Positions 12,098 to 43,247 of a DNA stretch of 64,000 nt are shown here, piece after piece. Origin of the DNA: Parcubacteria bacterium C7867-007 (GTDB taxonomy: Bacteria; Patescibacteriota; Minisyncoccia; Phycocordibacterales; Phycocordibacteraceae); the NCBI GenBank assembly GCA_001189195.1, contig LFCQ01000003.1, forward strand, positions 71,059-135,058, written 5' to 3'. Numbering within the stretch: the first letter of the stretch is position 1; each line of letters opens with the position of its first letter. The translations under genes were made by a program, and so were the position numbers. The notes below the pieces were generated by a model. It ran no database searches, was not told where the DNA came from, and saw only the letters and a program-made list of their open reading frames with translations.

Positions 12098-12354
12098 GGT
12101 ATAAATACCTCAGCAGGACTGGTGCTCCTTCTTTGAAGAACAGCGGATGTAACGCATGCGAGTATGGAGCTTTCCATAATGAGAAGCTTTATCAGGTATA
12201 GCGCGATATTCTGCGGTCCAACGAAGTGGTAAGTGTGCGTGTCTGGGGTGAAGCGTGGCCCCATTGATCCTTAGCACGGTCCTGTATTTCTCTGAGCCAC
12301 CCTTGCGTGGCTCTTTTCTTTGCTTTTATTACCATTTTTAGCTAGGGTATCTAT

Positions 12355-13449
12355 ATGAAGATCGGTATCGTAGGGCTTCCGAATGTTGGGAAGTCCACTC
12401 TATTTAATGCGCTCACCAAGGCGAGTGTTCCTGCAGAGAACTATCCGTTCTGCACCATAGACCCATCTGTGGGTGTAGTGGGGGTACCGGACGAACGTCT
12501 AGACAAGCTTTCAACACTATCAAACTCAGAGAAGACTATTCCTGCAGCTATTGAATTCGTTGACATAGCCGGACTCGTTCAAGGCGCTTCAACAGGTGAA
12601 GGTCTCGGGAACCAGTTCCTTTCTCATATCCGTGAAGTGGATGCCATTCTTGAAATGGTTCGCTTCTTTGATGATCCAGACGTTATCCATGTACATGGGG
12701 AGGTTGATCCTGTACGAGACATTGAGGTTATCAACCTTGAGCTTATCCTTGCAGACCAACAGAGTGTCTCTGGTCGTCGTGAGCGACTAACCGGAGATGT
12801 GCGTGCACAGAAGAAAGATGCTGTGGCAGAGGAAGCAGTTCTTGCAAAGATTGAGCAGCAACTCCTTAAGGGACTCTTTGCTCGCAGTGCTGAACTAACA
12901 CCGGAAGAAGCAAAGATCGTTAAGGGTTTGAACCTCCTCACCATGAAGCCAATCCTTTATGCACTTAATGGAAAGTCTGGCGGCCACAATCTTGATGAGC
13001 TTAATGATGGACGTTCTCGTGCTGCGTTTGAACTCATAGAGTCTCTTGGTTCAACGTACGTACAAGTGGACGCAGTGACCGAGCATGAGCTAAACGATGT
13101 TGCGGAAGAAGATAAGCATATGTTCCGTTCAGAGCTTGGAGTCTCTGTTGATGGCCTTGAGGCACTTATACGTGGTGCATACAACGCTCTTGGCCTCATC
13201 ACCTTCTTCACCACAGGACCAAAGGAGTCTCGTGCATGGACTATTCCTAATGGAGCAACTGCGCCAGAAGCAGGAGCTGCTATACATACTGATTTTAAGG
13301 ATAAGTTTATTCGTGCTGAAGTGGTGGCGTCAGACACTCTCCTTCAGGATGGATCGTGGAGTGCATCACGCGATAAGGGAAACCTTAAGACTGAAGGAAA
13401 GACATACGTGGTGAAGGATGGAGATGTGATGGTGTTTCTGCATAGTTAG
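12355..13449 (+). CDS. ychF: Redox-regulated ribosome-binding ATPase YchF (Obg family).
   Basis: MKIGIVGLPNVGKSTLFNALT with G1-G4 motifs and a TGS-like C-terminus. Confidence 0.95.
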   Translation: MKIGIVGLPNVGKSTLFNALTKASVPAENYPFCTIDPSVGVVGVPDERLDKLSTLSNSEKTIPAAIEFVDIAGLVQGASTGEGLGNQFLSHIREVDAILEMVRFFDDPDVIHVHGEVDPVRDIEVINLELILADQQSVSGRRERLTGDVRAQKKDAVAEEAVLAKIEQQLLKGLFARSAELTPEEAKIVKGLNLLTMKPILYALNGKSGGHNLDELNDGRSRAAFELIESLGSTYVQVDAVTEHELNDVAEEDKHMFRSELGVSVDGLEALIRGAYNALGLITFFTTGPKESRAWTIPNGATAPEAGAAIHTDFKDKFIRAEVVASDTLLQDGSWSASRDKGNLKTEGKTYVVKDGDVMVFLHS

Positions 13450-13450
13450 A

Positions 13451-13476
13451 AGGTTCGAATCCTAGTCTCCCAGCAG
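13451..13476 (+). repeat. tRNA 3'-half-like variant of the 30-nt repeat family (AGGTTCGAATCCTAGTCTCCCAGCAG), immediately after the ychF stop.
   Basis: GGTTCGAATCC is a canonical tRNA T-loop. The overall layout mirrors the 3' half of the tRNA-Asn in this window (GGTTCGAATCCTACCCGCGGAGCA). It shares the GGTTC...CCAGCA frame with the other copies. Confidence 0.5.
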
Positions 13477-13571
13477 TCTAGTTTAGTATCGAAGGACCCA
13501 GAGGGGTCAGATACTAGAAAGATAACTATTCCGTCATTGCATACCTGCTGAGAGCAGTATCCAGAACAAAA

Positions 13572-13600
13572 AGCCACCGGTAACTCGGTGGCTTTTTGTA
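13572..13600 (+). terminator. Rho-independent terminator downstream of ychF.
   Basis: agccaccggtaactcggtggct followed by ttttt. Confidence 0.75.
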
Positions 13601-13638
13601 TCAACGCTTCGCTTTGTCCTTTTCCCTGATTTTTAAGC

Positions 13639-13670
13639 AAAGTTCCCACGTTGTACCAACCCCCCAGCAA
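13639..13670 (+). repeat. Copy of the 30-nt repeat family (AAAGTTCCCACGTTGTACCAACCCCCCAGCAA). It forms the left boundary of a high-GC cassette.
   Basis: About 26 of 33 positions match the copy at 14155 and the array copies at 48113, 48561, 48849 and 49058. Confidence 0.7.
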
Positions 13671-13700
13671 TTGACTTTTATATATATTGTGCTATTTTAA
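13671..13700 (+). promoter_or_regulatory. Putative sigma70 promoter for the cassette gene, with a -35 of TTGACT.
   Basis: TTGACT lies directly after the repeat; an A/T-rich -10 candidate follows 16-18 nt later. The AAAGGAGG Shine-Dalgarno sits 8 nt before the ATG at 13734. Confidence 0.4.
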
Positions 13701-13733
13701 ATACGAACCAGTTCTAACAAAAAGGAGGCAGAG

Positions 13734-14099
13734 ATGCCGCATGTAATCGTTCACTTCGATCCGAAACGTGTTCTCCAGTCCGTCATCGACGAGCTCAAGC
13801 CTCCGCTTCAGCAGATCGTAGCCGATGGCCTGAGTTATACCTCGTCCGACCACAAGGACGTCCGCGTCGATCCAAAGGAGGTCTATGTTCGGCAGCAGGC
13901 GGCACACCCAACCGATGTGAATCCTGCGGCGATCGAGATCGAAATCCAGGCGGGGAAGAAGAGGGAGCGCAATCCCGAGGGCATGGTCGTGCTCATGTCC
14001 AGGAAGATCATCGAGAGCGAGATCATTCCGAAGGATATGGCCGATCTGTGCATCTGGCTCCGCTTCTCCGAAGACAACGCCTTCAAGAACATCTACTGA
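13734..14099 (+). CDS. Tautomerase-superfamily protein, 5-carboxymethyl-2-hydroxymuconate isomerase (CHMI)-like. Compositionally foreign (high GC).
   Basis: N-terminal MPHVIVHF (Pro1 after Met removal, like CHMI MPHFIMECS). About 121 aa. GC is clearly above its surroundings. Flanked by direct repeats. Confidence 0.55.
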   Translation: MPHVIVHFDPKRVLQSVIDELKPPLQQIVADGLSYTSSDHKDVRVDPKEVYVRQQAAHPTDVNPAAIEIEIQAGKKRERNPEGMVVLMSRKIIESEIIPKDMADLCIWLRFSEDNAFKNIY

Positions 14100-14120
14100 C
14101 GCTGATCGCGTCGACCGACG

Positions 14121-14149
14121 CCACCCCGGTATATGGGTGGTTTTCTTTT
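14121..14149 (+). terminator. Rho-independent terminator of the cassette gene.
   Basis: ccaccccggtatatgggtgg followed by ttttctttt. Confidence 0.75.
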
Positions 14150-14154
14150 ATATA

Positions 14155-14186
14155 AAAGTTCCCACGTCGTACCAGACAGCCAGAAA
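14155..14186 (+). repeat. Copy of the 30-nt repeat family (AAAGTTCCCACGTCGTACCAGACAGCCAGAAA). It forms the right boundary of the high-GC cassette.
   Basis: Direct repeat of 13639..13670; matches the array consensus ...CGTCGTMCCAGACNGCCAG.AAA. Confidence 0.7.
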
Positions 14187-14204
14187 TAGGGTACTATTTC
14201 TGGA

Positions 14205-14741
14205 ATGATCAGCAATCCTCTCTCTGGAAGAACGCAGGGATACCATCTGTTCTTGGTACCAAATGAAGAGGCGTCTCAGAAGTTCTTTAGCATTATCAAC
14301 TCAATTGCTAGTACTTATCAAAGCCCCACTTTCCCTCCCCATGTAACACTTCTTTCTAATATCTCGGGTGATGAAAAAGAATTGTGTACACAAGCACAAA
14401 AACTTGCTCTCAAGCTTGCACCCCAGATTCTAACCGTCAGTGGGGTGTCCACTGAAGATAGTTTCTTTCGCGCACTCTATCTAAAGGTTCAAGAGATAGT
14501 TCCATTAACTGAAATGCACAAGAATGCATCTGCCACATTTGCTATGCCAGTAGCAGAGTACACCCCGCACCTAAGTCTGCTCTACGGAACGTATCCGGAG
14601 GACACCAAGCAGGAAACAGTGCGTCTCGTGTCTCCACTTCAGGGGTTTGAGTTTGTTCTCTCAACACTTGCCCTGTATCGAACAGAAGGGGAAGTTACCG
14701 AATGGGAAAAGATCGCTTCGTTTCCCTTAGGAACTTCATAG
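14205..14741 (+). CDS. 2H phosphoesterase superfamily protein (cyclic phosphodiesterase/LigT-like).
   Basis: Two H-x-T/S-x motifs (HVTLL and HLSLLY) about 80 aa apart; size 178 aa. Confidence 0.6.
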   Translation: MISNPLSGRTQGYHLFLVPNEEASQKFFSIINSIASTYQSPTFPPHVTLLSNISGDEKELCTQAQKLALKLAPQILTVSGVSTEDSFFRALYLKVQEIVPLTEMHKNASATFAMPVAEYTPHLSLLYGTYPEDTKQETVRLVSPLQGFEFVLSTLALYRTEGEVTEWEKIASFPLGTS

Positions 14742-15780: not shown

Positions 15781-18669
15781 ATGGCAAAGAACCGTTTCGA
15801 TCATACAGAAATAGAGAAGAAAGCTCAGGAGAAATGGGCTGCGCTTGATCTGCATCAAACGGATCTCACAGATACCGAGAAGGATCCATACTATCTAATG
15901 TTTGAGTTCCCGTTTCCTTCGGGAGACCTCCATATAGGGCACTGGTATGCCTTTGCCCTCACAGACATTTATGCACGGTTCCTTCGCATGGCAGGGAAGA
16001 ACGTGCTTTTCCCTGTTGGTTTTGACTCCTTTGGTCTTCCTGCCGAGAACGCCGCAATGAAGAACGGGCAACCAACGCCCGAGTGGACGTACGCCGCTAT
16101 TGAGAAGATGCGTGGCCAGATGCGTTCTATGGGAACATCGGTAGATTGGAGCAAAGAGGTTATCACCTCAGACCCCGAATACTATAAGTGGACACAGTGG
16201 TTGTTCCTTAAACTCTTTGAGCATGGTCTTGCACAACACCGAGAAGCACCTGTTAAATGGTGTCCAAAAGATGCCACCGTACTTGCCAATGAACAGGTGA
16301 TTGATGGGAAGTGTGAGCGTTGCGGTACCGATGTTGAAGAGAAACACCTCACCCAGTGGTTCCTTAAGATCACTGATTATGCAGAGCGTCTCCTCACCGA
16401 TCTTGATCCACTTCCATGGCGTGAAGATATTAAAGAATCACAGCGTGCATGGATAGGGAAGTCAGAGGGAGCAAAGCTCAAGTTCCAGGTGGTGAGTGCA
16501 AAAGACGCATCAACACCCAATGATTCCGTAGCTATAGAAGTCTTCACAACACGTCCAGACACCATCTTCGGTGTTACGTATGTCGTACTCGCTCCTGAGC
16601 ACCCACTTATCGATACCCTTGAACCAGTTATTGCCAATGGTGAAGCGGTTGCTGAGTATCGTCAAACAACCTCGCGCAAGAGTGAGCGTGAACGCTCGGA
16701 GAACAAAGATAAGACTGGTGTACTCCTTGAAGGGGTTATGGCCATTAATCCTGCAACACACAAGGAGATTCCTGTATATGTAGCGGATTACGTACTTGCT
16801 TCATACGGTACCGGTGCCGTTATGGCAGTACCTGCGCATGACGAGCGTGATTTTGTATTTGCAAAGAAGTTCAACCTTCCAATCAAATACGTTATTGATC
16901 CAGTCACGGGATCTCCACAGGAGAATCCCCAAGATAAGCAGAAGATTGTAGCTATCGTTGAGCACGACAACAAAATCCTCACCATTCACTGGAAACCTGA
17001 ACTAGGGGGTCGTTTATTTGTTGGTGGTACCGCAGAAGAAGGTGAAGATCCTGTAGTAACTGCAATGCGTGAAATTGCTGAAGAAACCGGTTATACCGAT
17101 CTTGAGCTTATTGAACGTGCTGAGGAGCAAGTACATCACGAGTACTTTGCACACTCCAAGAACAAGGCATTTATCGCGCACACCACACTCCTTCATTTCC
17201 GCTTAAAGAGTGATGCACAGCAACCAACAGCTCTTGAAGATAATGAGATTGGAAAGTTTGAAGTTGAGTGGGTGACACGTGAGCAAGCCATAAAGGAAGT
17301 GAAGGATCCACTCCATCTCTACGCATTTAATAAGTTCGCTATGGGTATGTGCTACACCGGGGACGGTACCCTTTCAAACTCGGGAACCTTCAACGGACGC
17401 GATAACCGCGAAGTGATGGGAGAAATTGTTGAAGCAGTGGGTGGTGAGGTGACGACTAACTATCGTATACGAGATTGGCTTGTATCACGTCAGCGATACT
17501 GGGGCTGTCCAATACCGATCGTCTATGACCCTGAAGGGAATCCGCATGCGGTTCCCGCAGAACATCTCCCTTGGACCCTTCCAACCGATGTTGATTCCGG
17601 TTCAGGAAAGGGAGAGTCTCCACTTAAAGCATCAAAAGAACTTCAAGCACGTGTAGAGCAGATCTTCGGAGAAGGATGGACCCCAGAATGCGACACACTC
17701 GATGTGTTCGTAGATTCTTCATGGTACTTCCTGCGATACCTTGATCCCAAGGATGAGCATGACTTCTCAGACCAGGCACTTATGAAGAAGTGGTTGCCGG
17801 TGAATCGATACTCTGGTGGTAGCGAGCACACCACCGTGCACCTTCTCTATGCCCGTTTCTTCTACAAAGCGCTCTATGACCTCGGACTCGTTCCAACCTC
17901 TGAGCCATTCTATGAGCGATACAACCGTGGACTCGTACTAGACTCCGAAGGACGCAAGATGAGCAAGCGATGGGGCAACGTGGTGAACCCCGATGACATG
18001 GTGAAGCTCTATGGAGCAGATGCGGTGCGTATGTACCTCGCATTCATGGGTCCATACAACGAAGCAGGTCATTACCCATGGAAACTCACGGGTGTGGAAG
18101 CTATGCGAAAGTTCCTAGATCGTATCGTAACCCTATCGGGTCGCCTTTCTGATGAAGAGCCGACTGAGAATACCCTTCGTGCTCTCGCAAAGGCGGCAGA
18201 CAAGGTGGGCACAGACATTGTTCGCTTTAAGTACAACACAGCGATCTCTGCTCTTATGGTGCTTGTTAATGAACTTGAAACACTCACTGCTATACCTCGT
18301 ACTGCATACAGGGAGCTCATTACGATGCTCGCACCCTTCGCACCCCATGTATCAGAGTATTTGTATGAGAACAGCCTCCTCACGAGCTCTCACGCGGTAA
18401 ATGGTGATGAAGAGAGTGAAGTACCGAAGAGCGTACACCAGCTGGAGTGGCCAGTCATAGATGAATCCCTCCTCACCACTGAAACGATCATAATGGGAGT
18501 ACAGGTAGCGGGAAAACGACGGGGAGAAGTCTCTATTAGTCCCGAAGCAACCGAAGAAGAGGCTGTTGCAGCGGCACTTGCACAGCCAGATGTCCTCAAG
18601 TTCCTAGAAGGGGGTACACCAAGCAGGATTATCTACGTTCCAGGCCGTATCCTTAACCTAATACCCTAG
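15781..18669 (+). CDS. leuS: Leucyl-tRNA synthetase carrying an inserted Nudix-hydrolase domain.
   Basis: HIGH motif (HIGHWYAFALTD), CP1 editing domain (TTRPDTIFGV...AHDERDF) and KMSKS (KMSKRWGN). About 135 extra aa at roughly nt 16895-17345 contain a perfect Nudix box GGTAEEGEDPVVTAMREIAEETGY. Confidence 0.9.
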   Translation: MAKNRFDHTEIEKKAQEKWAALDLHQTDLTDTEKDPYYLMFEFPFPSGDLHIGHWYAFALTDIYARFLRMAGKNVLFPVGFDSFGLPAENAAMKNGQPTPEWTYAAIEKMRGQMRSMGTSVDWSKEVITSDPEYYKWTQWLFLKLFEHGLAQHREAPVKWCPKDATVLANEQVIDGKCERCGTDVEEKHLTQWFLKITDYAERLLTDLDPLPWREDIKESQRAWIGKSEGAKLKFQVVSAKDASTPNDSVAIEVFTTRPDTIFGVTYVVLAPEHPLIDTLEPVIANGEAVAEYRQTTSRKSERERSENKDKTGVLLEGVMAINPATHKEIPVYVADYVLASYGTGAVMAVPAHDERDFVFAKKFNLPIKYVIDPVTGSPQENPQDKQKIVAIVEHDNKILTIHWKPELGGRLFVGGTAEEGEDPVVTAMREIAEETGYTDLELIERAEEQVHHEYFAHSKNKAFIAHTTLLHFRLKSDAQQPTALEDNEIGKFEVEWVTREQAIKEVKDPLHLYAFNKFAMGMCYTGDGTLSNSGTFNGRDNREVMGEIVEAVGGEVTTNYRIRDWLVSRQRYWGCPIPIVYDPEGNPHAVPAEHLPWTLPTDVDSGSGKGESPLKASKELQARVEQIFGEGWTPECDTLDVFVDSSWYFLRYLDPKDEHDFSDQALMKKWLPVNRYSGGSEHTTVHLLYARFFYKALYDLGLVPTSEPFYERYNRGLVLDSEGRKMSKRWGNVVNPDDMVKLYGADAVRMYLAFMGPYNEAGHYPWKLTGVEAMRKFLDRIVTLSGRLSDEEPTENTLRALAKAADKVGTDIVRFKYNTAISALMVLVNELETLTAIPRTAYRELITMLAPFAPHVSEYLYENSLLTSSHAVNGDEESEVPKSVHQLEWPVIDESLLTTETIIMGVQVAGKRRGEVSISPEATEEEAVAAALAQPDVLKFLEGGTPSRIIYVPGRILNLIP

Positions 18670-22494: not shown

Positions 22495-23895
22495 ATGGCA
22501 TCACTTAAATATACAAAGATTGTTGCGACAATCGGTCCGAAAACAGAATCTGAAGAAACCCTAACCCGCCTCATCCAGGCGGGAATGAACGTCATGCGCC
22601 TAAACATGAGCCATGGTGATCATGCCGAGCATGGAGACCGTATTACCAATGGACGTGCAGCTGCTGAGAAGCTGGGTGAACCTATTGGTATCCTCATGGA
22701 CCTCTCTGGTCCCAAGATCCGCACCGGTATCTATGAGACCGAGCGCATCACAATTCAAAACGGTGCAAAACTCACCCTCACCACAGAGGAGGCAATCGGC
22801 ACCACCGAGCGTATTTATGTAAACTATCGCAAGCTCCCTCAGGAGGTGAAGCCAGGCTCCGTTATCATGCTGGACGATGGAAAGAAGAAGCTGGTAGTTG
22901 ATTCTGTTGAAGGAACTGAGGTGCACTGCACCGTTGTGGTTGGTGGTGAGCTTAAGGCACGCCGTGGCGTAAATATTCCTGGAGCATACCTCTCAATCGA
23001 CACCATCACTGAGAAGGATCGTGAAGATCTTGCTTTTGGTATTACGCGAGGTATTGATCTTGTGGCTCTTTCCTTCGTTCGTCGTGCAGACGATATACAT
23101 GAGCTGCGTGAGATTCTAAAGACTCTTGGTGCACCAAACCTCCCAATCATTTCAAAGATTGAGACCCAGGAAGCTATTGATAACCTTGATGCAATTATCA
23201 CTGCATCAGATGGCATCATGGTGGCACGTGGAGATCTTGCTATTGAGATTCCTGCAGAGCAAGTACCTCGTTGGCAAAAGGAGATGATACGCAAAGCAAA
23301 TGAGCAGGGAAAGCCGGTTATCACCGCAACCCAGCTTCTTGAATCTATGATCACCAGCCCAGTACCGACCCGAGCTGAAGTATCAGACGTAGCTAATGCT
23401 GTGTTTGATGGTACTGATGCCGTAATGCTCTCAGAGGAAAGTACTCTTGGTGCGTTCCCGGTTGAAGCAGTTGAGACACTTGCGCGTGTTGCACGTGCGT
23501 CTGAAGCTGCGATAACTCAGCCCACCGCAGTATCGACGATTCCTGACACCGTTACGCATGCTGTAGCACGAGCTGCAGAGGAACTAAATGCAAAAGCGAT
23601 TGTGGCCCTTACCGAATCAGGAACCACCGCGCGTATCACAGCACGCTTCCACCCTCATTGCCCTGTTATTGCACTCACCCCAAGTGAATCAACACGAAAG
23701 TCTCTCGCACTTTCACGTGGAGTATTCCCATTCACCGTTAAACAGCTTGGTTCTCTTGAAGAGACACTCGCATTCATCCCAGGTTTCCTTATTGAAAAGG
23801 GATTTGCTGCTACCGGTGACACCGTACTCGTTACGGCAGGTCTCCGCTTTGGTGTTACAGGTTCAACAAACCTTCTGGTTGCGATAACCCTCTAA
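22495..23895 (+). CDS. pyk: Pyruvate kinase.
   Basis: TKIVATIGP, MNVMRLNMSHG and MVARGDLAIEIP motifs. Confidence 0.95.
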   Translation: MASLKYTKIVATIGPKTESEETLTRLIQAGMNVMRLNMSHGDHAEHGDRITNGRAAAEKLGEPIGILMDLSGPKIRTGIYETERITIQNGAKLTLTTEEAIGTTERIYVNYRKLPQEVKPGSVIMLDDGKKKLVVDSVEGTEVHCTVVVGGELKARRGVNIPGAYLSIDTITEKDREDLAFGITRGIDLVALSFVRRADDIHELREILKTLGAPNLPIISKIETQEAIDNLDAIITASDGIMVARGDLAIEIPAEQVPRWQKEMIRKANEQGKPVITATQLLESMITSPVPTRAEVSDVANAVFDGTDAVMLSEESTLGAFPVEAVETLARVARASEAAITQPTAVSTIPDTVTHAVARAAEELNAKAIVALTESGTTARITARFHPHCPVIALTPSESTRKSLALSRGVFPFTVKQLGSLEETLAFIPGFLIEKGFAATGDTVLVTAGLRFGVTGSTNLLVAITL

Positions 23896-24572
23896 GGGTA
23901 TCCCGGATAGTATTCGATCTTAAAGTCTTCTATCCATTCGGTACCTGGTATAACACTGAGTACCTTGCCGAATATCTTGGAATCTTCCTCTTTCACAATG
24001 ATGGGGGAGTAGTTTCCGTATGCATTCTGAGGGTTTAGATATACCACTTCATCAACCTTCTGGTACTGCTTAATAACCGCCATGTTACCCAGTACCGCCA
24101 CAACACGATCGCCATCATCCACATCCTCTGTCACCTCAACAATCACGTAGTCTCCGTTACGAATACCCGCATCAATCATGCTGTCTCCCACGGCACGCAC
24201 TGCCACAATGTTTGTATGACTCCCAACGAACGAACGATCAACGGTGATGAACTCACCAAACTCATTCTGTGCATATACTTCAACCGCATCACACCCTGCA
24301 GATGCAATCACAGGAATCTCCACAACTCCTGAATGTGCAAAAGGGAACTGCGTATCAAGAATAGTGATACTGCGATGCTGATGGCGATCACGCTTAGTGA
24401 ATCCTTTACGCTCCAATGCCTCTAATCGCTGGGTAACACTACGCAGTGAACGAAGATGCAGCCCATCACGCAACTCCGAGATAGTTGGAGCTTGCTTGTT
24501 CTTTGCGACATACGTACGAATAAACGAGAGTGTTTCCTCCTGCGCACCGGTGAGTGTTCGATGCAATGCCAT
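23892..24572 (-). CDS. lexA: LexA repressor (S24 peptidase).
   Basis: N-terminal wHTH, AVRAVGDSMIDAGI (Ser nucleophile) and VIKQY...K. Confidence 0.9.
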   Translation of the reverse strand: MALHRTLTGAQEETLSFIRTYVAKNKQAPTISELRDGLHLRSLRSVTQRLEALERKGFTKRDRHQHRSITILDTQFPFAHSGVVEIPVIASAGCDAVEVYAQNEFGEFITVDRSFVGSHTNIVAVRAVGDSMIDAGIRNGDYVIVEVTEDVDDGDRVVAVLGNMAVIKQYQKVDEVVYLNPQNAYGNYSPIIVKEEDSKIFGKVLSVIPGTEWIEDFKIEYYPGYP

Positions 24573-24613
24573 ATATAAAGAGAATACCTGACATCACGGC
24601 AACACAAGACAAG

Positions 24614-24635
24614 TTGTGTGTGGATAAGCACACAA
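24614..24635. promoter_or_regulatory. Candidate LexA operator: palindrome TTGTGTG-N8-CACACAA upstream of lexA, with additional ACACAAG half-sites nearby.
   Basis: 7-bp inverted repeat with an 8-bp spacer about 40-60 nt upstream of the lexA start. Several more CACAAG repeats lie at 24601-24657. Confidence 0.35.
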
Positions 24636-24744
24636 GTATATACACAACATACACAAGTTTATTTTATACAAAAGAAAACAGCCTCGTCACTTCACTCCTA
24701 AGAGTGAGAGCAACGAGGCCGTCTTTGAGGTCTCATGGTGTAGA

Positions 24745-25497
24745 TCAGGCGATGGCCCGATGCCGGCGGCGCAGAACGCTGCCGGCGAGGCCGAAGCCCA
24801 GGATCATCATCGCCCAGGTCGCCGGCTCGGGAACCGCCACGCCGCCCGGAGGCGTGATGATGATCGGCGGATCCAGGTCGTCCTGGAGACGCGGGAAGAT
24901 CTTCACGTTGTCCAGCAGCAGAGCTTCCCCCTGGAAGCCCGAGCTCGGCATGAAGCCGGCCGGGTTCGAGGCGAAGGTCGCACGAACGTTGATCTTGGCG
25001 ATGGTGTCGAAACCGGTCGCCGTGAAAACGAACGTTTGATAGCTCCGATAGTGGAGACCCGGCAGACTGCCGTCGAGGACGACGTCGCCGTGGTTGTCGA
25101 TGACCTGGAAGTCCAGGTCGATCGGGAACGTCGCCAGCATGGAGTTCATGTTCTGCCCGAAGTCGGCAGAGAGTGCGTTGAAGTAGCTCCCGTCGGCCAT
25201 CGTTATGCTGGTGTATCCCGTCGCGAACGGCGGCGAGAGGCCGGTGCCCCGAGGAGCCCAACCGTTGCCGGGAACCACCGTGCTGCTGATGCCGCTGGTG
25301 GCGCCGATGTAGGCGACGTGGACCCCGCTGGGGCTGGTGTAGGTCGTGTTGGCCGTGAGGGGGGGTTGCGACGCGAAGTCGGCCCCAATGAGCGACTCGA
25401 TAGGTGCGCCCAAGCCCACGAAGATTGCGCCATGCGCGGGAGCGGAAAAGGCCAGAGCAAGTGCGCCGGCCACCCCGAGATTCAGAAAATGTTTCAT
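24745..25497 (-). CDS. PEP-CTERM sorting-domain secreted protein (high-GC, foreign).
   Basis: Signal peptide MKHFLNLGVAGALALAFSAPAHGA. C-terminal VPEPATWAMMILGFGLAGSVLRRRH is a PEP-CTERM/exosortase signal. GC is far above the window background. Confidence 0.75.
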   Translation of the reverse strand: MKHFLNLGVAGALALAFSAPAHGAIFVGLGAPIESLIGADFASQPPLTANTTYTSPSGVHVAYIGATSGISSTVVPGNGWAPRGTGLSPPFATGYTSITMADGSYFNALSADFGQNMNSMLATFPIDLDFQVIDNHGDVVLDGSLPGLHYRSYQTFVFTATGFDTIAKINVRATFASNPAGFMPSSGFQGEALLLDNVKIFPRLQDDLDPPIIITPPGGVAVPEPATWAMMILGFGLAGSVLRRRHRAIA

Positions 25498-25876
25498 TTC
25501 ATACCCCAGTAGTTGGATGACTCGGTACGCCGAGTATCGGCCATTCCGTCGGATTTGATCCTGAGGAAGTGAGCGTTCTAAGGGCCATTTGTGGTCCACA
25601 GAACGCTCACTTCCTTCTAAAACCATGAGTTTTAAAAGGACCCGTAACTGGTCGTATCATACTAGAGTTGACATATCTGTCAAGACGTTGTGGACAGTAG
25701 ACTTCATGAAGTTAACTTGCACAAATCAATGATTTAGGTTATAAAAACAACAGCAGTTCTTTATATATTCCTGTTTTACCGCACCCAAAAGCACTTCTGA
25801 GTCTTCTTAGGAATATTCTTGGGTACGGTAAAACAGGACATTTGTCGTTCTGGTTCCTACCACCTTTGCAAAGGGA

Positions 25877-26542
25877 ATGTATATGAAGACTTTGATGTTG
25901 GCAGCTGCGGCTGCCCTAACGCTCTCGTTCGCGGGCGTCGCCAACTCGGCGGAGCTCTTGAACGGAGTCCACTACGGCACCGGCAACGACTACACGCCCG
26001 GCAACTGGACGGTCGCCACCGGTGGTGGGATCGAAACCGGTCTGCGGGCCCACGAAGTGTTCCAGGTGGCTCCGGCACCGTCGGGCAACCTCTACACCTT
26101 CGCCCTTGGCCAGACCATCGGCTTCGACTTCTCGATCGATCCGACCTTCGGCGGCACGCCTGTGGACCTCACGAGCGCGCTGATCACGATCACGAACCTC
26201 GGCACTGGCGGCGTCGCCAGCTTCAACCCGCTGCTCCTGCCCGACAACAGCATCGCTGGCAGCATCCAGAACAGCGAGCGGCTGAGCTTTGGCTTCCTGA
26301 ACGGTTCGCCAATCTTCAACGTCGGCGACATCGACTACAACAACGCCGTGAACAGCAGCTACCGCATCAACCTGACGGTTGCGGGCGGCGGCATCCGGTC
26401 CCTGCAAAACGAGATCCTCGTCCAGCAAGGCACCGGCGCGGTTCCCGAGCCGGCGACCTGGGCGATGATGATCCTGGGCTTCGGCATGGCCGGCGCCACG
26501 CTTCGGCGGCGCCACCCCGTCGCCGTCTCGGCGCGAACCTAG
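25877..26542 (+). CDS. PEP-CTERM sorting-domain secreted protein, paralog of the divergent neighbour. The start may be 25883.
   Basis: Signal peptide MKTLMLAAAAALTLSFAGVANSA. Its C-terminal VPEPATWAMMILGFGMAGATLRRRH is nearly identical to the neighbour's. Confidence 0.75.
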   Translation: MYMKTLMLAAAAALTLSFAGVANSAELLNGVHYGTGNDYTPGNWTVATGGGIETGLRAHEVFQVAPAPSGNLYTFALGQTIGFDFSIDPTFGGTPVDLTSALITITNLGTGGVASFNPLLLPDNSIAGSIQNSERLSFGFLNGSPIFNVGDIDYNNAVNSSYRINLTVAGGGIRSLQNEILVQQGTGAVPEPATWAMMILGFGMAGATLRRRHPVAVSART

Positions 26543-26591
26543 AACGACAATCGCGAAAGACTACCCAGATAGTCTACGCATCCAACAACTG

Positions 26592-26620
26592 GCCCCCTCC
26601 GATGGAGTGGGGCTTTTCTT
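26592..26620 (+). terminator. Rho-independent terminator after the PEP-CTERM gene.
   Basis: ggccccctccgatggagtggggc followed by ttttcttt. Confidence 0.6.
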
Positions 26621-26685
26621 TATGCATATCGAATTCAAAAGGCCGGCGGAGCAATCCGTCGGCCAATCTTTTATTTGCTGGAAGA

Positions 26686-26802
26686 CTATTTAGCCTGAGC
26701 TGCCTTACGAGCCATCTTCACCGCAATACGCTTTGCGGTCTTCTGTGGATGCTTGTGTGGGCGCTTTGGGCTCACACCCTGCTTGCTCTTGTTTCGTGAC
26801 AT
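26686..26802 (-). CDS. Small, highly basic protein of 38 aa (MSRNKSKQGVSPKRPHKHPQKTAKRIAVKMARKAAQAK).
   Basis: Internal Met of ORF 26686..26985. Followed by a minus-strand hairpin plus T-run at about 26637-26670. No family recognised. Confidence 0.3.
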   Translation of the reverse strand: MSRNKSKQGVSPKRPHKHPQKTAKRIAVKMARKAAQAK

Positions 26803-28762: not shown

Positions 28763-30403
28763 CTATGTCGTAAGGATTGGCAGTCGAACACTAAACTCAC
28801 TTCCCATGCCAGGACCATCACTGTGTACCGCAACCGCACCACCATGCACTTCCACAAAACTCTTCACCAGTGCAAGACCAATACCAAGACCCTTCTGTGT
28901 ACGCGCTCCGCTACCCACCTGATGGAATGGAGTGAAGATGTGATCAATAGACTCAGGTGCAATGCCCACACCCTGATCCTTAATCACCACCACATATTCC
29001 TTGTTCTGCTTTGTAACAATAAGGGTTATGTGATCGCCTGAATCAGAGTACTTAGAGGCATTGGTAATAAGGTTGGAGAAGATTTGTTCGAGACGCACCG
29101 GATCACCTTCCACAAAGAGTCCTTTCTTTATGCCCTTGGTAACAAGGGTTTGGTGGCGCTCATGCGTGTGGTGCTCTGTAGAGAGGACTGCTCGAGGAAG
29201 TATTTCACCCAAATCAACCTTTTCATGTTTTATGCTGATTTTTCCTTCTGAGATACGGGAAACATCAAGAAGGTCATCAAGGTGCCTGCGTATGGTCTTC
29301 ATACGACCATCCATCATTTCTAGCGTCTCCATTTCTTCAGGATCACGATCTTTCTTTAAGCGAAGAAGATCAATAGCGCTCACCACTGGCGCGAGAGGAT
29401 TGCGTAGCTCATGCGCAAGGATAGCGATGAAGTCATTCTTGGAACGTGACTCCGTACTTATGCGAGCAACGGCATTCTCAAGCGTTGCAACCTGAGAACG
29501 CATTAGATTCGTATTCAAACGACGATCCTCTTCAAGTGCCACGATAATAAGGAAGATGATGGCGCGAGTAATGAGGAGTACCTCCATTTCAAAGAGCAGG
29601 TGCGGAAGAGCTTCTGGGCTGGCATGGGTAAGAACACTGGTGATACCGAACACAGAAGTGATCAGCAGGGCGAGGGTAATAAAGCGTGGACGTAGACGTA
29701 ACGCTATCCAGAAGAGGGGGATGGAGAGGAAGTAGCTTAGTGACACTCCACCGATTGCCGTAACACCTTCAATATAGAGTACGTAGTTGAGACCGATCAA
29801 CAGAATGAACACCGTCATCGTTTCCAGAATCTCTAAGGGTCCACGACCAAATCTACGCTTTGCACACCAACGCAGCACAAAAGGAACTCCTATGATTAGG
29901 CAGAACAGCATTGCCGCATATGCCTGCCCCCATTGAGTGAGCGTATAGAAAGTACCAGTACCTAGGTGCCAAATGGCAGTAAGGGTTGGTGTAAGGAGTG
30001 CAACAAGAAATACCGTACCAATGAGGCTAAAGACATCACGGTATCGACGAAAGAGAGGATCAACTTGTGCCTTACGAAGCAAATAAGCACCCGTGACAGA
30101 CTGCAGCGTGATAATCACAGCAGACACCGTGGCAAATACAGCATCTAATCCTGTTACAAAGCCTGAAAGCAATGCGGCTGCAAATACGAATGGCCAAAGC
30201 CGTTCGCTCATAAAGAACAGGAAGGCAAGGGAAATTGCAGCTGCGGGGGCAAAAGGTACCCATGGAGGAATCAGCAACGCTGTTCCGATACTCACCAATA
30301 CATATATAAGGAGGGTTATAGTGCCCACAGCACACTCACGAGGAGTGAACCTAAGGAGATCAGGGGCAGCTAGTATTCGCCACATAGGGTTTATCTGCTT
30401 CAT
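28763..30403 (-). CDS. Sensor histidine kinase with an N-terminal multi-TM sensor domain.
   Basis: About 8 TM helices, HisKA H-box LAHELRNPL and HATPase_c N/G boxes (NLITNASKYS, DQGVGI, GLGIGLALV). Confidence 0.85.
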   Translation of the reverse strand: MKQINPMWRILAAPDLLRFTPRECAVGTITLLIYVLVSIGTALLIPPWVPFAPAAAISLAFLFFMSERLWPFVFAAALLSGFVTGLDAVFATVSAVIITLQSVTGAYLLRKAQVDPLFRRYRDVFSLIGTVFLVALLTPTLTAIWHLGTGTFYTLTQWGQAYAAMLFCLIIGVPFVLRWCAKRRFGRGPLEILETMTVFILLIGLNYVLYIEGVTAIGGVSLSYFLSIPLFWIALRLRPRFITLALLITSVFGITSVLTHASPEALPHLLFEMEVLLITRAIIFLIIVALEEDRRLNTNLMRSQVATLENAVARISTESRSKNDFIAILAHELRNPLAPVVSAIDLLRLKKDRDPEEMETLEMMDGRMKTIRRHLDDLLDVSRISEGKISIKHEKVDLGEILPRAVLSTEHHTHERHQTLVTKGIKKGLFVEGDPVRLEQIFSNLITNASKYSDSGDHITLIVTKQNKEYVVVIKDQGVGIAPESIDHIFTPFHQVGSGARTQKGLGIGLALVKSFVEVHGGAVAVHSDGPGMGSEFSVRLPILTT

Positions 30404-30527
30404 TGTACTCCTATATATGGCTTGAACGATAGACTTATAAAACTACTATTCGGTTTGTCCACAAAAACTATTGAAGAGTGTATTCAGCAACTTGAAGCAA
30501 AAGTGAAAGCAAAGATATGCAAAGAGA

Positions 30528-30552
30528 AAGACCGGGTCCCTAGGGAACCCGG
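30528..30552 (-). terminator. Minus-strand rho-independent terminator at the edge of a high-GC islet.
   Basis: Near-perfect 25-bp palindrome gaccgggtccctagggaacccggtc, followed on the minus strand by tttctctttg. Confidence 0.55.
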
Positions 30553-30602
30553 TCTGTACGCGGATTGTGTACTGTGTCGACAATGAAGCCGACGTTTGGC
30601 GA

Positions 30603-30869
30603 TCAGCCGCGGCCGATGGCGCCGAGGTGATCGAGGCTGATCGACCACTGGATGGTCGTCGTGGCCGGCGCCGCGCTGAGGAAGAACCAGCCGAGGTCGT
30701 CGCACGGGACCAGGGTCTCGATGGGATTGCCGTATTCGTCCGTCTCGGGGCCCCAGGTCGTGCACCATTCCCCGAAGGGACCCGGGTCGAAGACCTGGGC
30801 CGAGGCGGTCGACGTGGTGCCGAGAGCAAGGGCCGCGGCGGCGGCGGCGAGCATCATCTTCTTCTTCAT
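30603..30869 (-). CDS. Small secreted protein, high-GC (foreign).
   Basis: Start at the internal Met: signal peptide MKKKMMLAAAAAALALGTTSTASA, mature part with 2 Cys. GC is markedly above background. Confidence 0.5.
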   Translation of the reverse strand: MKKKMMLAAAAAALALGTTSTASAQVFDPGPFGEWCTTWGPETDEYGNPIETLVPCDDLGWFFLSAAPATTTIQWSISLDHLGAIGRG

Positions 30870-31079
30870 AGTCGCTCCTAAAAGCAAGGTTCAGTGTCCC
30901 CCTTTGGTCCACCTGAACTATATATAACATAGTATGTAAAATTGGTCAAGGGGTATGGACCACAGCACATAAATATCCTTTTACTAGGCCATACTTTTCT
31001 TATTGTAGACCTGAAAAGAAAGCCGCCCGAAGGGGTGGCGAAGAAGTTAATTCTTCGCGTCCCTTCGAGCGACCATGGA

Positions 31080-31460
31080 TCACGGTTGCAACCGCAGACT
31101 ACGCACGAACTCAACCAGAGCTGCGCGAGACACGCCGCGAGGCAGTCTCGAGTAGGCTTTGAGAAGCTCGAGAGCTCCTGGCTCAGCCAGAAGGTGGGCG
31201 ACTTCGTCGATAGCTCCGCTGTGGGCAGAGTTCTCGCCGAACATCTCAGCGACCGGCACACCCATGGTCTTTGCGATCCGGGTGAGCATCGAGGCCGAAA
31301 CACGATTTGCACCGCGTTCGTACTTCTGGATTTGCTGGAATGTGACCCCAGCAGCCTCGGCCAGCGCTTGCTGACTGAGACCCTTCACTTTGCGCAGGAG
31401 CCTGATGCGTGCGCCAACGGCGACGTCAACAGGATCTGCGTTTGAGCAATTTCTTGGCAA
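31080..31460 (-). CDS. XRE-family helix-turn-helix transcriptional regulator (high-GC).
   Basis: [32 protein letters not shown] is a canonical HTH_XRE. Confidence 0.75.
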
Positions 31461-31543
31461 CTAGGTATCTCCCCTTGTACAGTGAGGCACTATCCTCAAC
31501 AAGAATTGTACACTATATATTTGATATAGTCAATATAGAGCTT

Positions 31544-31801
31544 TTAGTTAGCATCCAGTTCCTTTTGTTGCTGAGCAGAGCTTGCCTCGATAAGCTGCTT
31601 TGCATTTCTTGCCGCGTCTACTGAATTCACACTTCGTTGAGTAGGTGTGGTGTCCTTAGGAGAAGTGGGATTTGGTACAGATGGAGTAGCGGTTGGTTTA
31701 GGTGACACAATGTCTGACTGCAAGAAAATGAACCCAGCAATAGCAGCGACAATAAGAAGACTGAGGAGACCAATGTAGCCGTGAGGTTCTGTTCGATTCA
31801 T
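31544..31801 (-). CDS. Small membrane-anchored protein.
   Basis: 85 aa; N-terminal TM GLLSLLIVAAIAGFIFL, then a Pro/Thr/Ser-rich tail. Confidence 0.4.
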   Translation of the reverse strand: MNRTEPHGYIGLLSLLIVAAIAGFIFLQSDIVSPKPTATPSVPNPTSPKDTTPTQRSVNSVDAARNAKQLIEASSAQQQKELDAN

Positions 31802-31885
31802 TTCATAATCATACCGTACAAATTACTCGGCTTGTGGCTCAGGTCAGTGCATTTAACATTGATACTACAGTTACGTCAAGAATTG

Positions 31886-31957
31886 CTCCGCGGGTAGGAT
31901 TCGAACCTACGACCAAGTCGTTAACAGCGACCTGCTCTACCACTGAGCTACCGCGGA
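31886..31957 (-). tRNA. tRNA-Asn (anticodon GTT).
   Basis: Minus-strand sequence TCCGCGG-TA-GCTCAGTGGTAGAGC-A-GGTCG-CTGTTAA-CGACT-TGGTC-GTAGGTTCGAATCCTAC-CCGCGGA-G. It folds as a cloverleaf, 72 nt, anticodon loop C-T-GTT-A-A. CCA is not encoded. Confidence 0.85.
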
Positions 31958-32128
31958 ATGTAGCCTCCGAAGAGGCTGCACAGTTCCCGAAGGAACTTTG
32001 GCTATTCTAGCGGAAAAACCAAATTCAGCAATCTATAGACTAGGGAACAGCGGGTGGGTGTATAAGACTTGCCATAAAATCGAGCTGTTATACTTTCTAG
32101 ACAATAACGCAGACTCTAAGAGACTATT

Positions 32129-42677: not shown

Positions 42678-43247
42678 TTAGGTGTGTGCAGGTGCTGGGA
42701 CCCAGAACTTGCGCATAGCCAGTACCACCATGATGGCTGTGAGAACGGAGCAGGCGGCAGGATAGAAACGCTCTGAGATACTCCAGTCCTTGCCTGCCAC
42801 GGTCGACATGACGTTGACGACGAAGTAGGCGAACCAAACCCAGACCGTAGCTTCCCATGGCTTCTGCCACGCATCTTTCACTTGCGGTATCCCCGCAAGA
42901 ACCATAGCCGTGGTGGAAACGACTGTTGCCATCACGGGTCCTGAGATCATCCAGACCCCTATCGAGATCGCAACCATGAAGGTCGTGATCGTTTCGAATC
43001 GGGTCCAGGTGAACGTGCGTGCACGAAGCATCGCGACGATGACCAGCAGCACACCTGCAACGTATGCCGCAGGAAGTGCCCAGTTCCCACCTTTCACATA
43101 GATGGAGAGTGCAGCGATTGCATCGAGGACACCCCAGAGCAGGAACGTGGCGAGGTTGAGTTTCATTTTCCCTTGCCACACTTGAATCGAGGTCGGGAGA
43201 TAGATGATGATGGCCAGGGCGGCCGCAGACATGGCTAAAAAGGACAT
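42678..43247 (-). CDS. Integral membrane protein, about 6 TM (higher GC).
   Basis: 189 aa, hydrophobic helices throughout; no family recognised. Confidence 0.5.
   Translation of the reverse strand: MSFLAMSAAALAIIIYLPTSIQVWQGKMKLNLATFLLWGVLDAIAALSIYVKGGNWALPAAYVAGVLLVIVAMLRARTFTWTRFETITTFMVAISIGVWMISGPVMATVVSTTAMVLAGIPQVKDAWQKPWEATVWVWFAYFVVNVMSTVAGKDWSISERFYPAACSVLTAIMVVLAMRKFWVPAPAHT

Follow-up and report, generated by a model that had tools for sequence, protein, structure and literature searches.

A divergent pair of GC-rich PEPxxWA-CTERM protein genes beside lexA in Parcubacteria bacterium C7867-007

The divergent gene pair and its control region

A 64-kb stretch of contig LFCQ01000003.1 of Parcubacteria bacterium C7867-007 (hereafter the window, meaning the whole stretch of DNA analyzed) contains, next to lexA, an islet of two divergently transcribed genes, designated gene A and gene B, whose predicted products end in a PEP-CTERM sorting signal. 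Both open reading frames (ORFs) were present where a previous reading of this DNA, made from the sequence alone (the sequence-only reading), had placed them, and the start of gene B was refined: ATG 25883 was a better start than ATG 25877, and the gene call of the Joint Genome Institute (JGI) agreed with it. The mechanical ORF of gene A extends to 25626, and the start at 25497 (MK...) is the one kept in the sister species. The coordinates of these genes and of the associated features are collected in Table 1.

The products of genes A and B scored 32.9 and 32.7 bits, respectively, against the Pfam PEP-CTERM family PF07589 (cut-off, 20.7) and 53.8 and 53.0 bits, respectively, against the NCBIfam model NF035944 for PEPxxWA-CTERM (cut-off, 35), which bore out the PEP-CTERM motif that had been proposed for both C-termini. 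The signal consists of a PEP motif, a transmembrane (TM) helix, and an arginine cluster. The putative signal peptides, recognized by eye (MKHFLNLGVAGALALAFSAPAHG/A and MKTLMLAAAAALTLSFAGVANS/A, respectively), have typical n-h-c regions and AXA-like sites. The AlphaFold2 model of the gene B product, with a predicted local distance difference test score (pLDDT) of 85.8, consists of a beta-sandwich followed by a TM helix at residues 190-208; a specific solved structural relative of this model was looked for and none was found. The model of the gene A product, of low confidence (pLDDT 54), consists of an all-beta domain and a C-terminal helix. The two proteins are unrelated to each other outside the tail. 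The earlier description of them as compositionally foreign PEP-CTERM paralogs thus held, with their likeness limited to the tail.

The guanine-plus-cytosine (GC) content was 0.648 in gene A and 0.653 in gene B versus 0.486 for the window, and that at third codon positions (GC3) was 0.84 and 0.88, respectively, versus 0.42-0.46 in pyk, lexA, and the response-regulator gene. The top 700-bp GC windows of the entire 64 kb fell in these two genes (0.654 versus a mean of 0.486 with a standard deviation (sd) of 0.031, which is >5 sd), and the islet was the strongest tetranucleotide outlier of the window (correlation with the window, r ~0 versus a mean of 0.665 with an sd of 0.15). By all three measures, the composition of the islet departs from the window background, with a GC content far above it, as the sequence-only reading had stated. 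The spacer between the genes is 385 bp long, with a GC content of 0.42, and is host-like, as are the outer flanks. The foreign composition is therefore limited to the two coding sequences, and the proposed divergent transcription from a structured, AT-rich control region was upheld.

The control region was compared with the corresponding locus of Parcubacteria bacterium C7867-008 (L002) and with three contigs from unrelated sequencing projects, L083 (Logan), L112 (Hainich groundwater), and L169 (Logan), in each of which a relative of gene A lies directly upstream of lexA. The −35 element of the gene A promoter forms half of the palindrome TTGACAtatcTGTCAA (25668-25683), whose arms are kept in L002 as TTGACAtttaTGTCAA; TTGACATAT is kept in L083, and TTGACATA in L112 and L169. 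The candidate promoter of gene B, which falls below the scan threshold and is weaker than that of gene A, is kept in L002 as TTGCAT-17-TATAAA. The stem of the gene A terminator is kept in L002 through other bases, GCCTCACTGC/GCAGTGAGGC; this terminator was unlisted by the terminator scan because its loop is longer than 8 nt. The promoters, leaders, and terminators are AT-rich and host-like.

Each gene is preceded by a long hairpin. In hairpin 1, in the gene A leader, the inverted repeat GGAAGTGAGCGTTCT occurs at 25565-25579 and 25600-25614, within full arms of 24 nt (25564-25587 and 25592-25615); the predicted RNA fold of the gene A leader has an energy of −46.2 kcal/mol (z = −8.3 versus shuffles). 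Hairpin 2, with arms at 25769-25801 and 25806-25838, has a predicted RNA fold of −36 kcal/mol (z = −7.8 versus shuffles). The inverted repeats described in the sequence-only reading are thus real, with a fold z of about −8, and the coordinates it gave were 1-5 nt off. The gene A leader is 93-97% identical to that of L002, with one compensatory change, from C-G to U-A, in hairpin 1. A three-lineage alignment of hairpin 2 (window, L002, and L112) contained 29 pairs, 5 of which showed compensatory double changes. In its best-kept stretches, the spacer of the window is 88-97% identical to that of L002, compared with a genome-wide DNA identity of only ~77-83% and with saturated silent sites in neighboring genes; the proteins are less conserved than the control region. 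In L083 and L169, the spacers are shorter and lack both hairpins, yet the TTGACA promoter element is kept.

With Rfam 15, the sole match in the whole window was a transfer RNA (tRNA), and a permissive scan of 24500-26800 gave only chance-level matches to microRNA and counter-transcribed RNA families, far below threshold. The possibility that the hairpins are a dispersed repeat or a miniature inverted-repeat transposable element was rejected, because their arms are single-copy in the window and occur elsewhere only at orthologous loci.

A motif, AAGTTGTGTATRTTGTGT...GTTGTGGATAAC, was also observed upstream of lexA (window 24596-24665, minus strand), where it is kept in ~20 Paceibacterota loci (window, L002, L083, L085-L109, L112, and L169). 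It consists of tandem TTGTGT repeats ~10-11 bp apart and a perfect DnaA-box-like TTATCCACA, and is a candidate for the LexA operator of the group or for a DnaA-controlled promoter. The divergent spacer shows only a weak resemblance to it, GTTGTGGACA at 25687-25696.

At gene A, the JGI gene call picks a long antisense ORF (window 24760-25512, plus strand) and not the PEP-CTERM gene, and L002 has an antisense ORF of comparable length (12212-13021, plus strand). The exact gene A protein had no record in the protein collection, and its ortholog of L002 was absent among the gene A search matches. The choice of the antisense ORF by public gene callers would make this family nearly invisible in protein databases.

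Table 1. Features of the islet, with positions in the window
Feature	Coordinates	Strand	Description
Gene A terminator	24668-24722	minus	Intrinsic; GCCTCGT/ACGAGGC stem followed by a U-run; read by eye
Gene A	24745-25497	minus	250-aa precursor, ATG 25497; signal peptide (by eye), all-beta passenger domain, PEPxxWA-CTERM tail VPEPATWAMMILGFGLAGSVLRRRHRAIA
Tail inverted repeat, left arm	24761-24846		DNA encoding the gene A sorting signal; 86 nt, 83% complementary to the right arm
Gene A leader	25498-25650	minus	Small hairpin (25619-25645) and long hairpin 1 (25564-25615)
Gene A promoter	25656-25683	minus	Sigma-70-like; TTGACA-16-TATGAT, 11/12 matches; found by scan
Gene B candidate promoter	25717-25745	plus	TTGCAC-17-TATAAA; by eye
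Hairpin 2	25769-25838	plus	Within the predicted gene B leader (25752-25882)
Gene B	25883-26542	plus	219-aa precursor; signal peptide (by eye), beta-sandwich passenger, PEPxxWA-CTERM tail; alternative ATG 25877
Tail inverted repeat, right arm	26429-26514		DNA encoding the gene B sorting signal
Gene B terminator	26591-26623	plus	Intrinsic; found by scan; stem 26597-26612 followed by the tail CTTTTCTTTA

Related loci, foreign origin, and divergence of the genes

The pyruvate kinase (Pyk) encoded beside the islet shared 93% identity with the C7867-008 enzyme, and its other good matches were from Paceibacterota or other Patescibacteria. C7867-007 and C7867-008 are sister bins with 48% GC, genomes of ~0.7-0.8 Mb, and an F1F0 ATP synthase (Nelson and Stegen, PMC4508563); the window shares the 48% GC and the F1F0 ATP synthase. 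By these sequence affinities, the host is a Parcubacterium, a member of the candidate phyla radiation (CPR). In all parts compared, the window matched two contigs from JGI metagenome 3300001199 with 100% identity; these contigs abut at the tRNA-Asn gene. The contig bearing the islet was 100% identical over 16,079 bases, and gene B corresponds to its protein P0057 (100%). This identity indicates that the window belongs to a separate and longer assembly made from the same organism.

The gene order from leuS through the histidine-kinase gene is the same in L002 as in the window, with neighboring proteins 76-93% identical. At the same site, between lexA and a small basic ORF after the response-regulator gene, L002 carries a divergent GC-rich pair encoding PEPxxWA-CTERM proteins. 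Just downstream of the response-regulator gene in the window, this small ORF (26686-26802, minus strand) encodes a very basic product of 38 aa, MSRNKSKQGVSPKRPHKHPQKTAKRIAVKMARKAAQAK, and is 92% conserved in L002. An extra ORF of 130 aa is found in L002 (14279-14671, plus strand; GC ~0.56-0.59), without a family match, between the partner gene and the small basic ORF; it does not occur in the window. L083 and L169 show a divergent PEP-CTERM partner, and L112 ends before the partner position. Every complete tail from the related lineages passed NF035944, with 37-56 bits.

No PEPxxWA tail was found near lexA in relatives with LexA proteins 59-73% identical, or near pyk in the other Paceibacterota examined, and 89 other Patescibacteria loci, 1.03 Mb in total, yielded no PEP-CTERM-like tail. 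This distribution indicates that the locus is a trait common to a narrow clade of at least five related Parcubacteria lineages. Host genes in L083 (1730-3115) and L169 (1298-1513) had GC3 values of ~0.73-0.75 versus 0.42-0.46 in the window (22495-24572) and L002; since the LexA proteins of these relatives are ~84-92% identical, genomic GC content has shifted strongly within a small clade.

The gene B family has >700 members, with a best non-self identity of 57% and named members in Phenylobacterium, Sphingomicrobium, and other Alphaproteobacteria. The named homologs of the islet proteins overall are from Sphingomonas, Phenylobacterium, and Sphingomicrobium, so that the relatives are alphaproteobacterial; the sequence-only reading had called the signal typical of Proteobacteria and some other phyla. 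The homologs viewed in context lie on contigs with GC contents of 0.66-0.70, amid ordinary proteobacterial housekeeping genes, and the same groundwater sample supplied one 52% identical homolog, on a contig of GC 0.67. In tetranucleotide usage, genes A and B correlated with the GC-rich homolog contigs (r 0.82-0.83 versus ~0 with the host), and the codon log-likelihood ratio favored donor usage over host usage by +115. The searches turned up no close donor; outside identities reached at most 57% for gene B, 44% for the L002 partner, and 33% for gene A. The proteobacterial composition and codon usage, together with the homologs in GC-rich Proteobacteria, indicate that the coding sequences entered by horizontal transfer.

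The sequence comparisons also indicate that this transfer was old, not a recent one-off event. The vacant syntenic site expected of a recent island was not observed; the site is occupied in C7867-008, L083, L112, and L169. No integrase or transposase was found among the ORFs between pyk and the histidine-kinase gene, no direct repeats were found flanking the islet, and the nearest (and only) tRNA gene is 5.3 kb from it. The earlier interpretation as a horizontally acquired surface-protein pair thus agreed with these results as to origin, but not as to the recent acquisition it implied, because the locus predates the split of two species whose neighboring genes have a synonymous divergence (dS) of ~1.2.

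Relative to their L002 counterparts, pyk, lexA, and the response-regulator gene had a nonsynonymous divergence (dN) of 0.04-0.06 and a dS of 1.2-1.3, and gene A had a dN of 0.33 and a dS of 0.66; the gene A protein evolves ~8-fold faster than its neighbors. The gene A protein of the window was 61, 34, 31, and 35% identical to those of L002, L083, L112, and L169, respectively, and LexA was 81-93% identical across the same comparisons. Among 1.84 billion representatives, the gene A passenger had only two relatives, both in this Parcubacteria clade, and a single proteobacterial relative of gene A (P0002, 33%) is known. Three unrelated passengers occupy the partner position (winB, L002B, and L083B, of the window, L002, and L083, respectively), with likeness limited to the tail; the partner fragment of L169 looks L002B-like by eye. 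The homology between the window and L002 breaks off at ~25849, shortly before the gene B start, and picks up again in the tail. The orientation of gene A toward lexA is identical in all five lineages.

The tails showed the opposite behavior to the passengers. VPEPATWAMMI was unchanged in 7/7 tails of four lineages (window, L002, L083, and L112), the invariant stretch reached VPEPATWAMMILGFG in five of the seven, and L169 keeps VPEP..WA.. as well. Orthologous tails (the gene A tail of the window versus that of L002 or L083) differed over 16 codons by 4-5 synonymous and 0 non-synonymous changes. Genes A and B of the window share an identical 48-nt core, and the tails of paralogs from one genome have synonymous codon choices in common (window: GAG, GCG, and GCG; L083: GCC and GCC; L002: GAA). 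The synonymous-only changes and the shared states indicate purifying selection on the exact signal and concerted evolution of the two copies. An invertible or phase-variable switch and an integron-like cassette were considered and rejected; inverted repeats of the tails exist, but without a nearby recombinase or integrase and with the locus in a fixed orientation.

The GC3 of the PEP-CTERM genes was 0.79-0.89 in all five lineages, and that of the host genes was 0.37-0.75. This lack of decay possibly reflects repeated import of replacement cassettes from donors rich in GC, an idea that is plausible at the partner position but poorly supported for gene A; selection for GC-rich codons and GC-biased gene conversion at a recombination hot spot are also possible causes.

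Alternative explanations and known systems

The islet is probably a real, inherited locus of the Parcubacterium, encoding two divergent, putatively Sec-exported beta-sandwich proteins with a PEPxxWA-CTERM signal of alphaproteobacterial type. Its products are most likely variable surface proteins of alphaproteobacterial origin that are tail-anchored or sortase-processed. The tail would hold the proteins in the membrane, or an exosortase-like enzyme would cleave and attach them, and the hairpin leaders may control or stabilize both messenger RNAs. At the surface, the variable proteins would probably take part in contact with other cells, and the alphaproteobacterial signal may hint at the kind of bacteria living with these Parcubacteria.

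Several observations weigh against this interpretation. The surface location, expression, and function of the products are themselves predictions, and three of the five instances of the locus are on short contigs of 1.3-3.1 kb. If gene A had been inherited vertically, its GC3 would be expected to be ~0.6 by a rough, unfitted two-state estimate (0.87 decaying towards 0.44 at a dS of ~1.2), compared with the observed 0.84 in the window and 0.82 in L002. The two strands of each hairpin fold about equally well (−46.2 versus −43.4 kcal/mol for hairpin 1 and −36.0 versus −39.2 kcal/mol for hairpin 2), which bears on the strand and mode of action assumed for the leaders. No exosortase was found when all ORFs of the window with ≥5 predicted TM segments were searched with Pfam and NCBIfam, as the sequence-only reading had also reported, and no exopolysaccharide genes were seen near the locus. 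PEP-CTERM proteins reportedly accompany an exosortase in outer-membrane bacteria, usually together with exopolysaccharide loci; to our knowledge, neither an exosortase nor an outer membrane has been described for Parcubacteria.

That the islet might be an assembly chimera or contaminant, with GC-rich proteobacterial reads spliced into a Parcubacteria contig, had been raised in the sequence-only reading, and the abrupt change in composition and the presence in the same sample of GC-rich bacteria with homologous genes would fit it. However, it would require four junctions that match the ends of two coding sequences separated by host-like DNA, a second assembly carries the identical sequence, the same syntenic site is occupied in C7867-008, a species ~78% identical in DNA, and the locus lies beside lexA in contigs from three other sequencing projects; we therefore exclude a chimeric contig, which would be extremely improbable. 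Recurrent xenologous replacement, in which a conserved expression platform was kept while PEPxxWA genes from GC-rich neighbors or hosts overwrote the coding cassettes with the tail DNA as the recombination anchor, would explain the lack of GC3 decay and the high GC3 of the genes in every lineage despite the range of host values. It would also fit the three unrelated passenger types at the partner position, the interruption of homology from ~25849 to the tail, tail DNA identical at 44-51 of 57 nt even to proteobacterial genes, and the finding that the Parcubacteria copies of gene A are roughly as close to P0002 as to one another. Nevertheless, no close donor was found, both relatives of the gene A passenger among the representatives belong to this clade, the gene A proteins of the window and L002 are mutually closest in accordance with the species relationship, and no obvious DNA anchor exists at the 5′ ends. 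We consider such replacement unlikely. The palindromes might also be DNA operators for a dimeric repressor, either the neighboring LexA or an XRE-type protein encoded at 31080-31460, and not RNA structures; lexA is the immediate neighbor in all lineages, one palindrome shares bases with the gene A −35 element, and equal folding of both strands is what true DNA palindromes should show. This idea is rather doubtful, given that arms of 24-33 bp far exceed the usual operator length, that the changes in the arms preserve base pairing, that the TTGTGT repeats and TTATCCACA found upstream of lexA are not intact in the divergent spacer, and that L083 and L169 lack both hairpins.

The inherited-locus interpretation can accommodate different roles of the tail. 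The tails may be membrane anchors only, without a sortase, the PEP motif being a relic of the donor. This possibility deserves to be kept in mind as a tentative one, as a TM helix and an arginine cluster are enough to anchor a protein and the search of the window yielded no exosortase. In the literature search, we found no paper naming PEPxxWA-CTERM, no report of PEP-CTERM proteins or exosortases in Patescibacteria, and none that linked exosortase with Patescibacteria, and the supplements of Nelson and Stegen contained no mention of sortases. On the other hand, an anchor requires hydrophobicity and not an exact sequence such as the invariant VPEPATWAMMI; the tails remain constant where silent sites change and where passenger identities drop to 31-61% or to nothing, and the core of the motif is retained even in L169, with all complete tails passing the PEPxxWA-CTERM model. 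Since a plain anchor would not need the invariant VPEPATWAMMILGFG, these results suggest, indirectly, that something still recognizes the signal. One candidate reader is an exosortase, either encoded by the CPR genome or belonging to an alphaproteobacterial host that receives the proteins in its envelope; we regard this as quite unlikely. If it were true and the enzyme were CPR-encoded, Patescibacteria would gain their first exosortase system, which would also be the first from a cell lacking a classical outer membrane. Under both variants, the kind of signal would indicate Sphingomonadales- or Caulobacterales-like partners, and the un-decayed GC3 would reflect ongoing exchange with these partners or selection tied to the interaction.

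A close known counterpart is the PEP-CTERM/exosortase system (PF07589, TIGR02595; variant NF035944), with which the islet shares the order of the precursor (putative signal peptide, recognized here by eye; passenger; PEP motif, TM helix, and basic cluster) and the attachment of one tail to unrelated passengers, as in proteobacterial genomes. It differs in having a Parcubacterium as host, in that no exosortase or exopolysaccharide locus was found nearby and only two clients were seen, and in the host-type control DNA that surrounds the genes at their position beside lexA. Archaeosortase A with its PGF-CTERM signal, which is said to anchor archaeal surface proteins, is a sortase of the same superfamily that acts on a tripartite C-terminal signal in cells that have no outer membrane. 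By analogy, it may provide a precedent for the use of such a tail in a Parcubacteria-like envelope, although the signal motif and the enzyme clade differ and the window yielded no such enzyme.

Genetic exchange is reported to shape the metabolic capacities of ultra-small Patescibacteria (PMC12455944), and the islet resembles such acquired genes in that foreign genes are retained by ultra-small, reduced genomes. The present case differs in that the genes encode surface proteins with a phylum-specific sorting signal and were kept across speciation with their composition unadjusted. The sharp compositional deviation and the absence from more distant relatives are features of a classical genomic island. 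Unlike such an island, the islet has no integrase, flanking direct repeats, or border tRNA, only its coding parts are foreign, and the same site is occupied in the sister species.

Other regions of the window and biological meaning

A second compositional outlier was observed at 30200-31960 (GC 0.57-0.60; tetranucleotide r 0.22-0.34), between the histidine-kinase gene and tRNA-Asn (31885-31957). It contains the gene for the XRE-type helix-turn-helix protein (31080-31460, minus strand), has no counterpart in L002, and may be a small integrated element; the tRNA is where both JGI contigs end. A 121-aa ORF at 13734-14099 (plus strand; GC3 0.76), lying in a stretch that does not align with L002 (~13450-14331), and a 189-aa protein with five predicted membrane helices encoded at 42678-43247 (minus strand; GC3 0.67) had no Pfam or NCBIfam match. 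For the 962-aa leucyl-tRNA synthetase (15781-18669, plus strand), the precomputed JGI Pfam list gives an unconfirmed NUDIX match.

The protein family itself was already known; the new elements are its occurrence in the candidate phyla radiation, the conserved hairpin-bearing control region beside lexA, the turnover of the cassettes, and the lack of compositional amelioration. Little is known about the hosts of Parcubacteria or about their cell-contact machinery, and an alphaproteobacterial signal kept by selection would be a testable lead to their partners. The locus also raises the question of an exosortase-like pathway in reduced cells. Moreover, it is a clear natural example in which acquired coding sequences have kept their own composition, and not that of the recipient, over a long time, which bears on the dating of transfers by amelioration.

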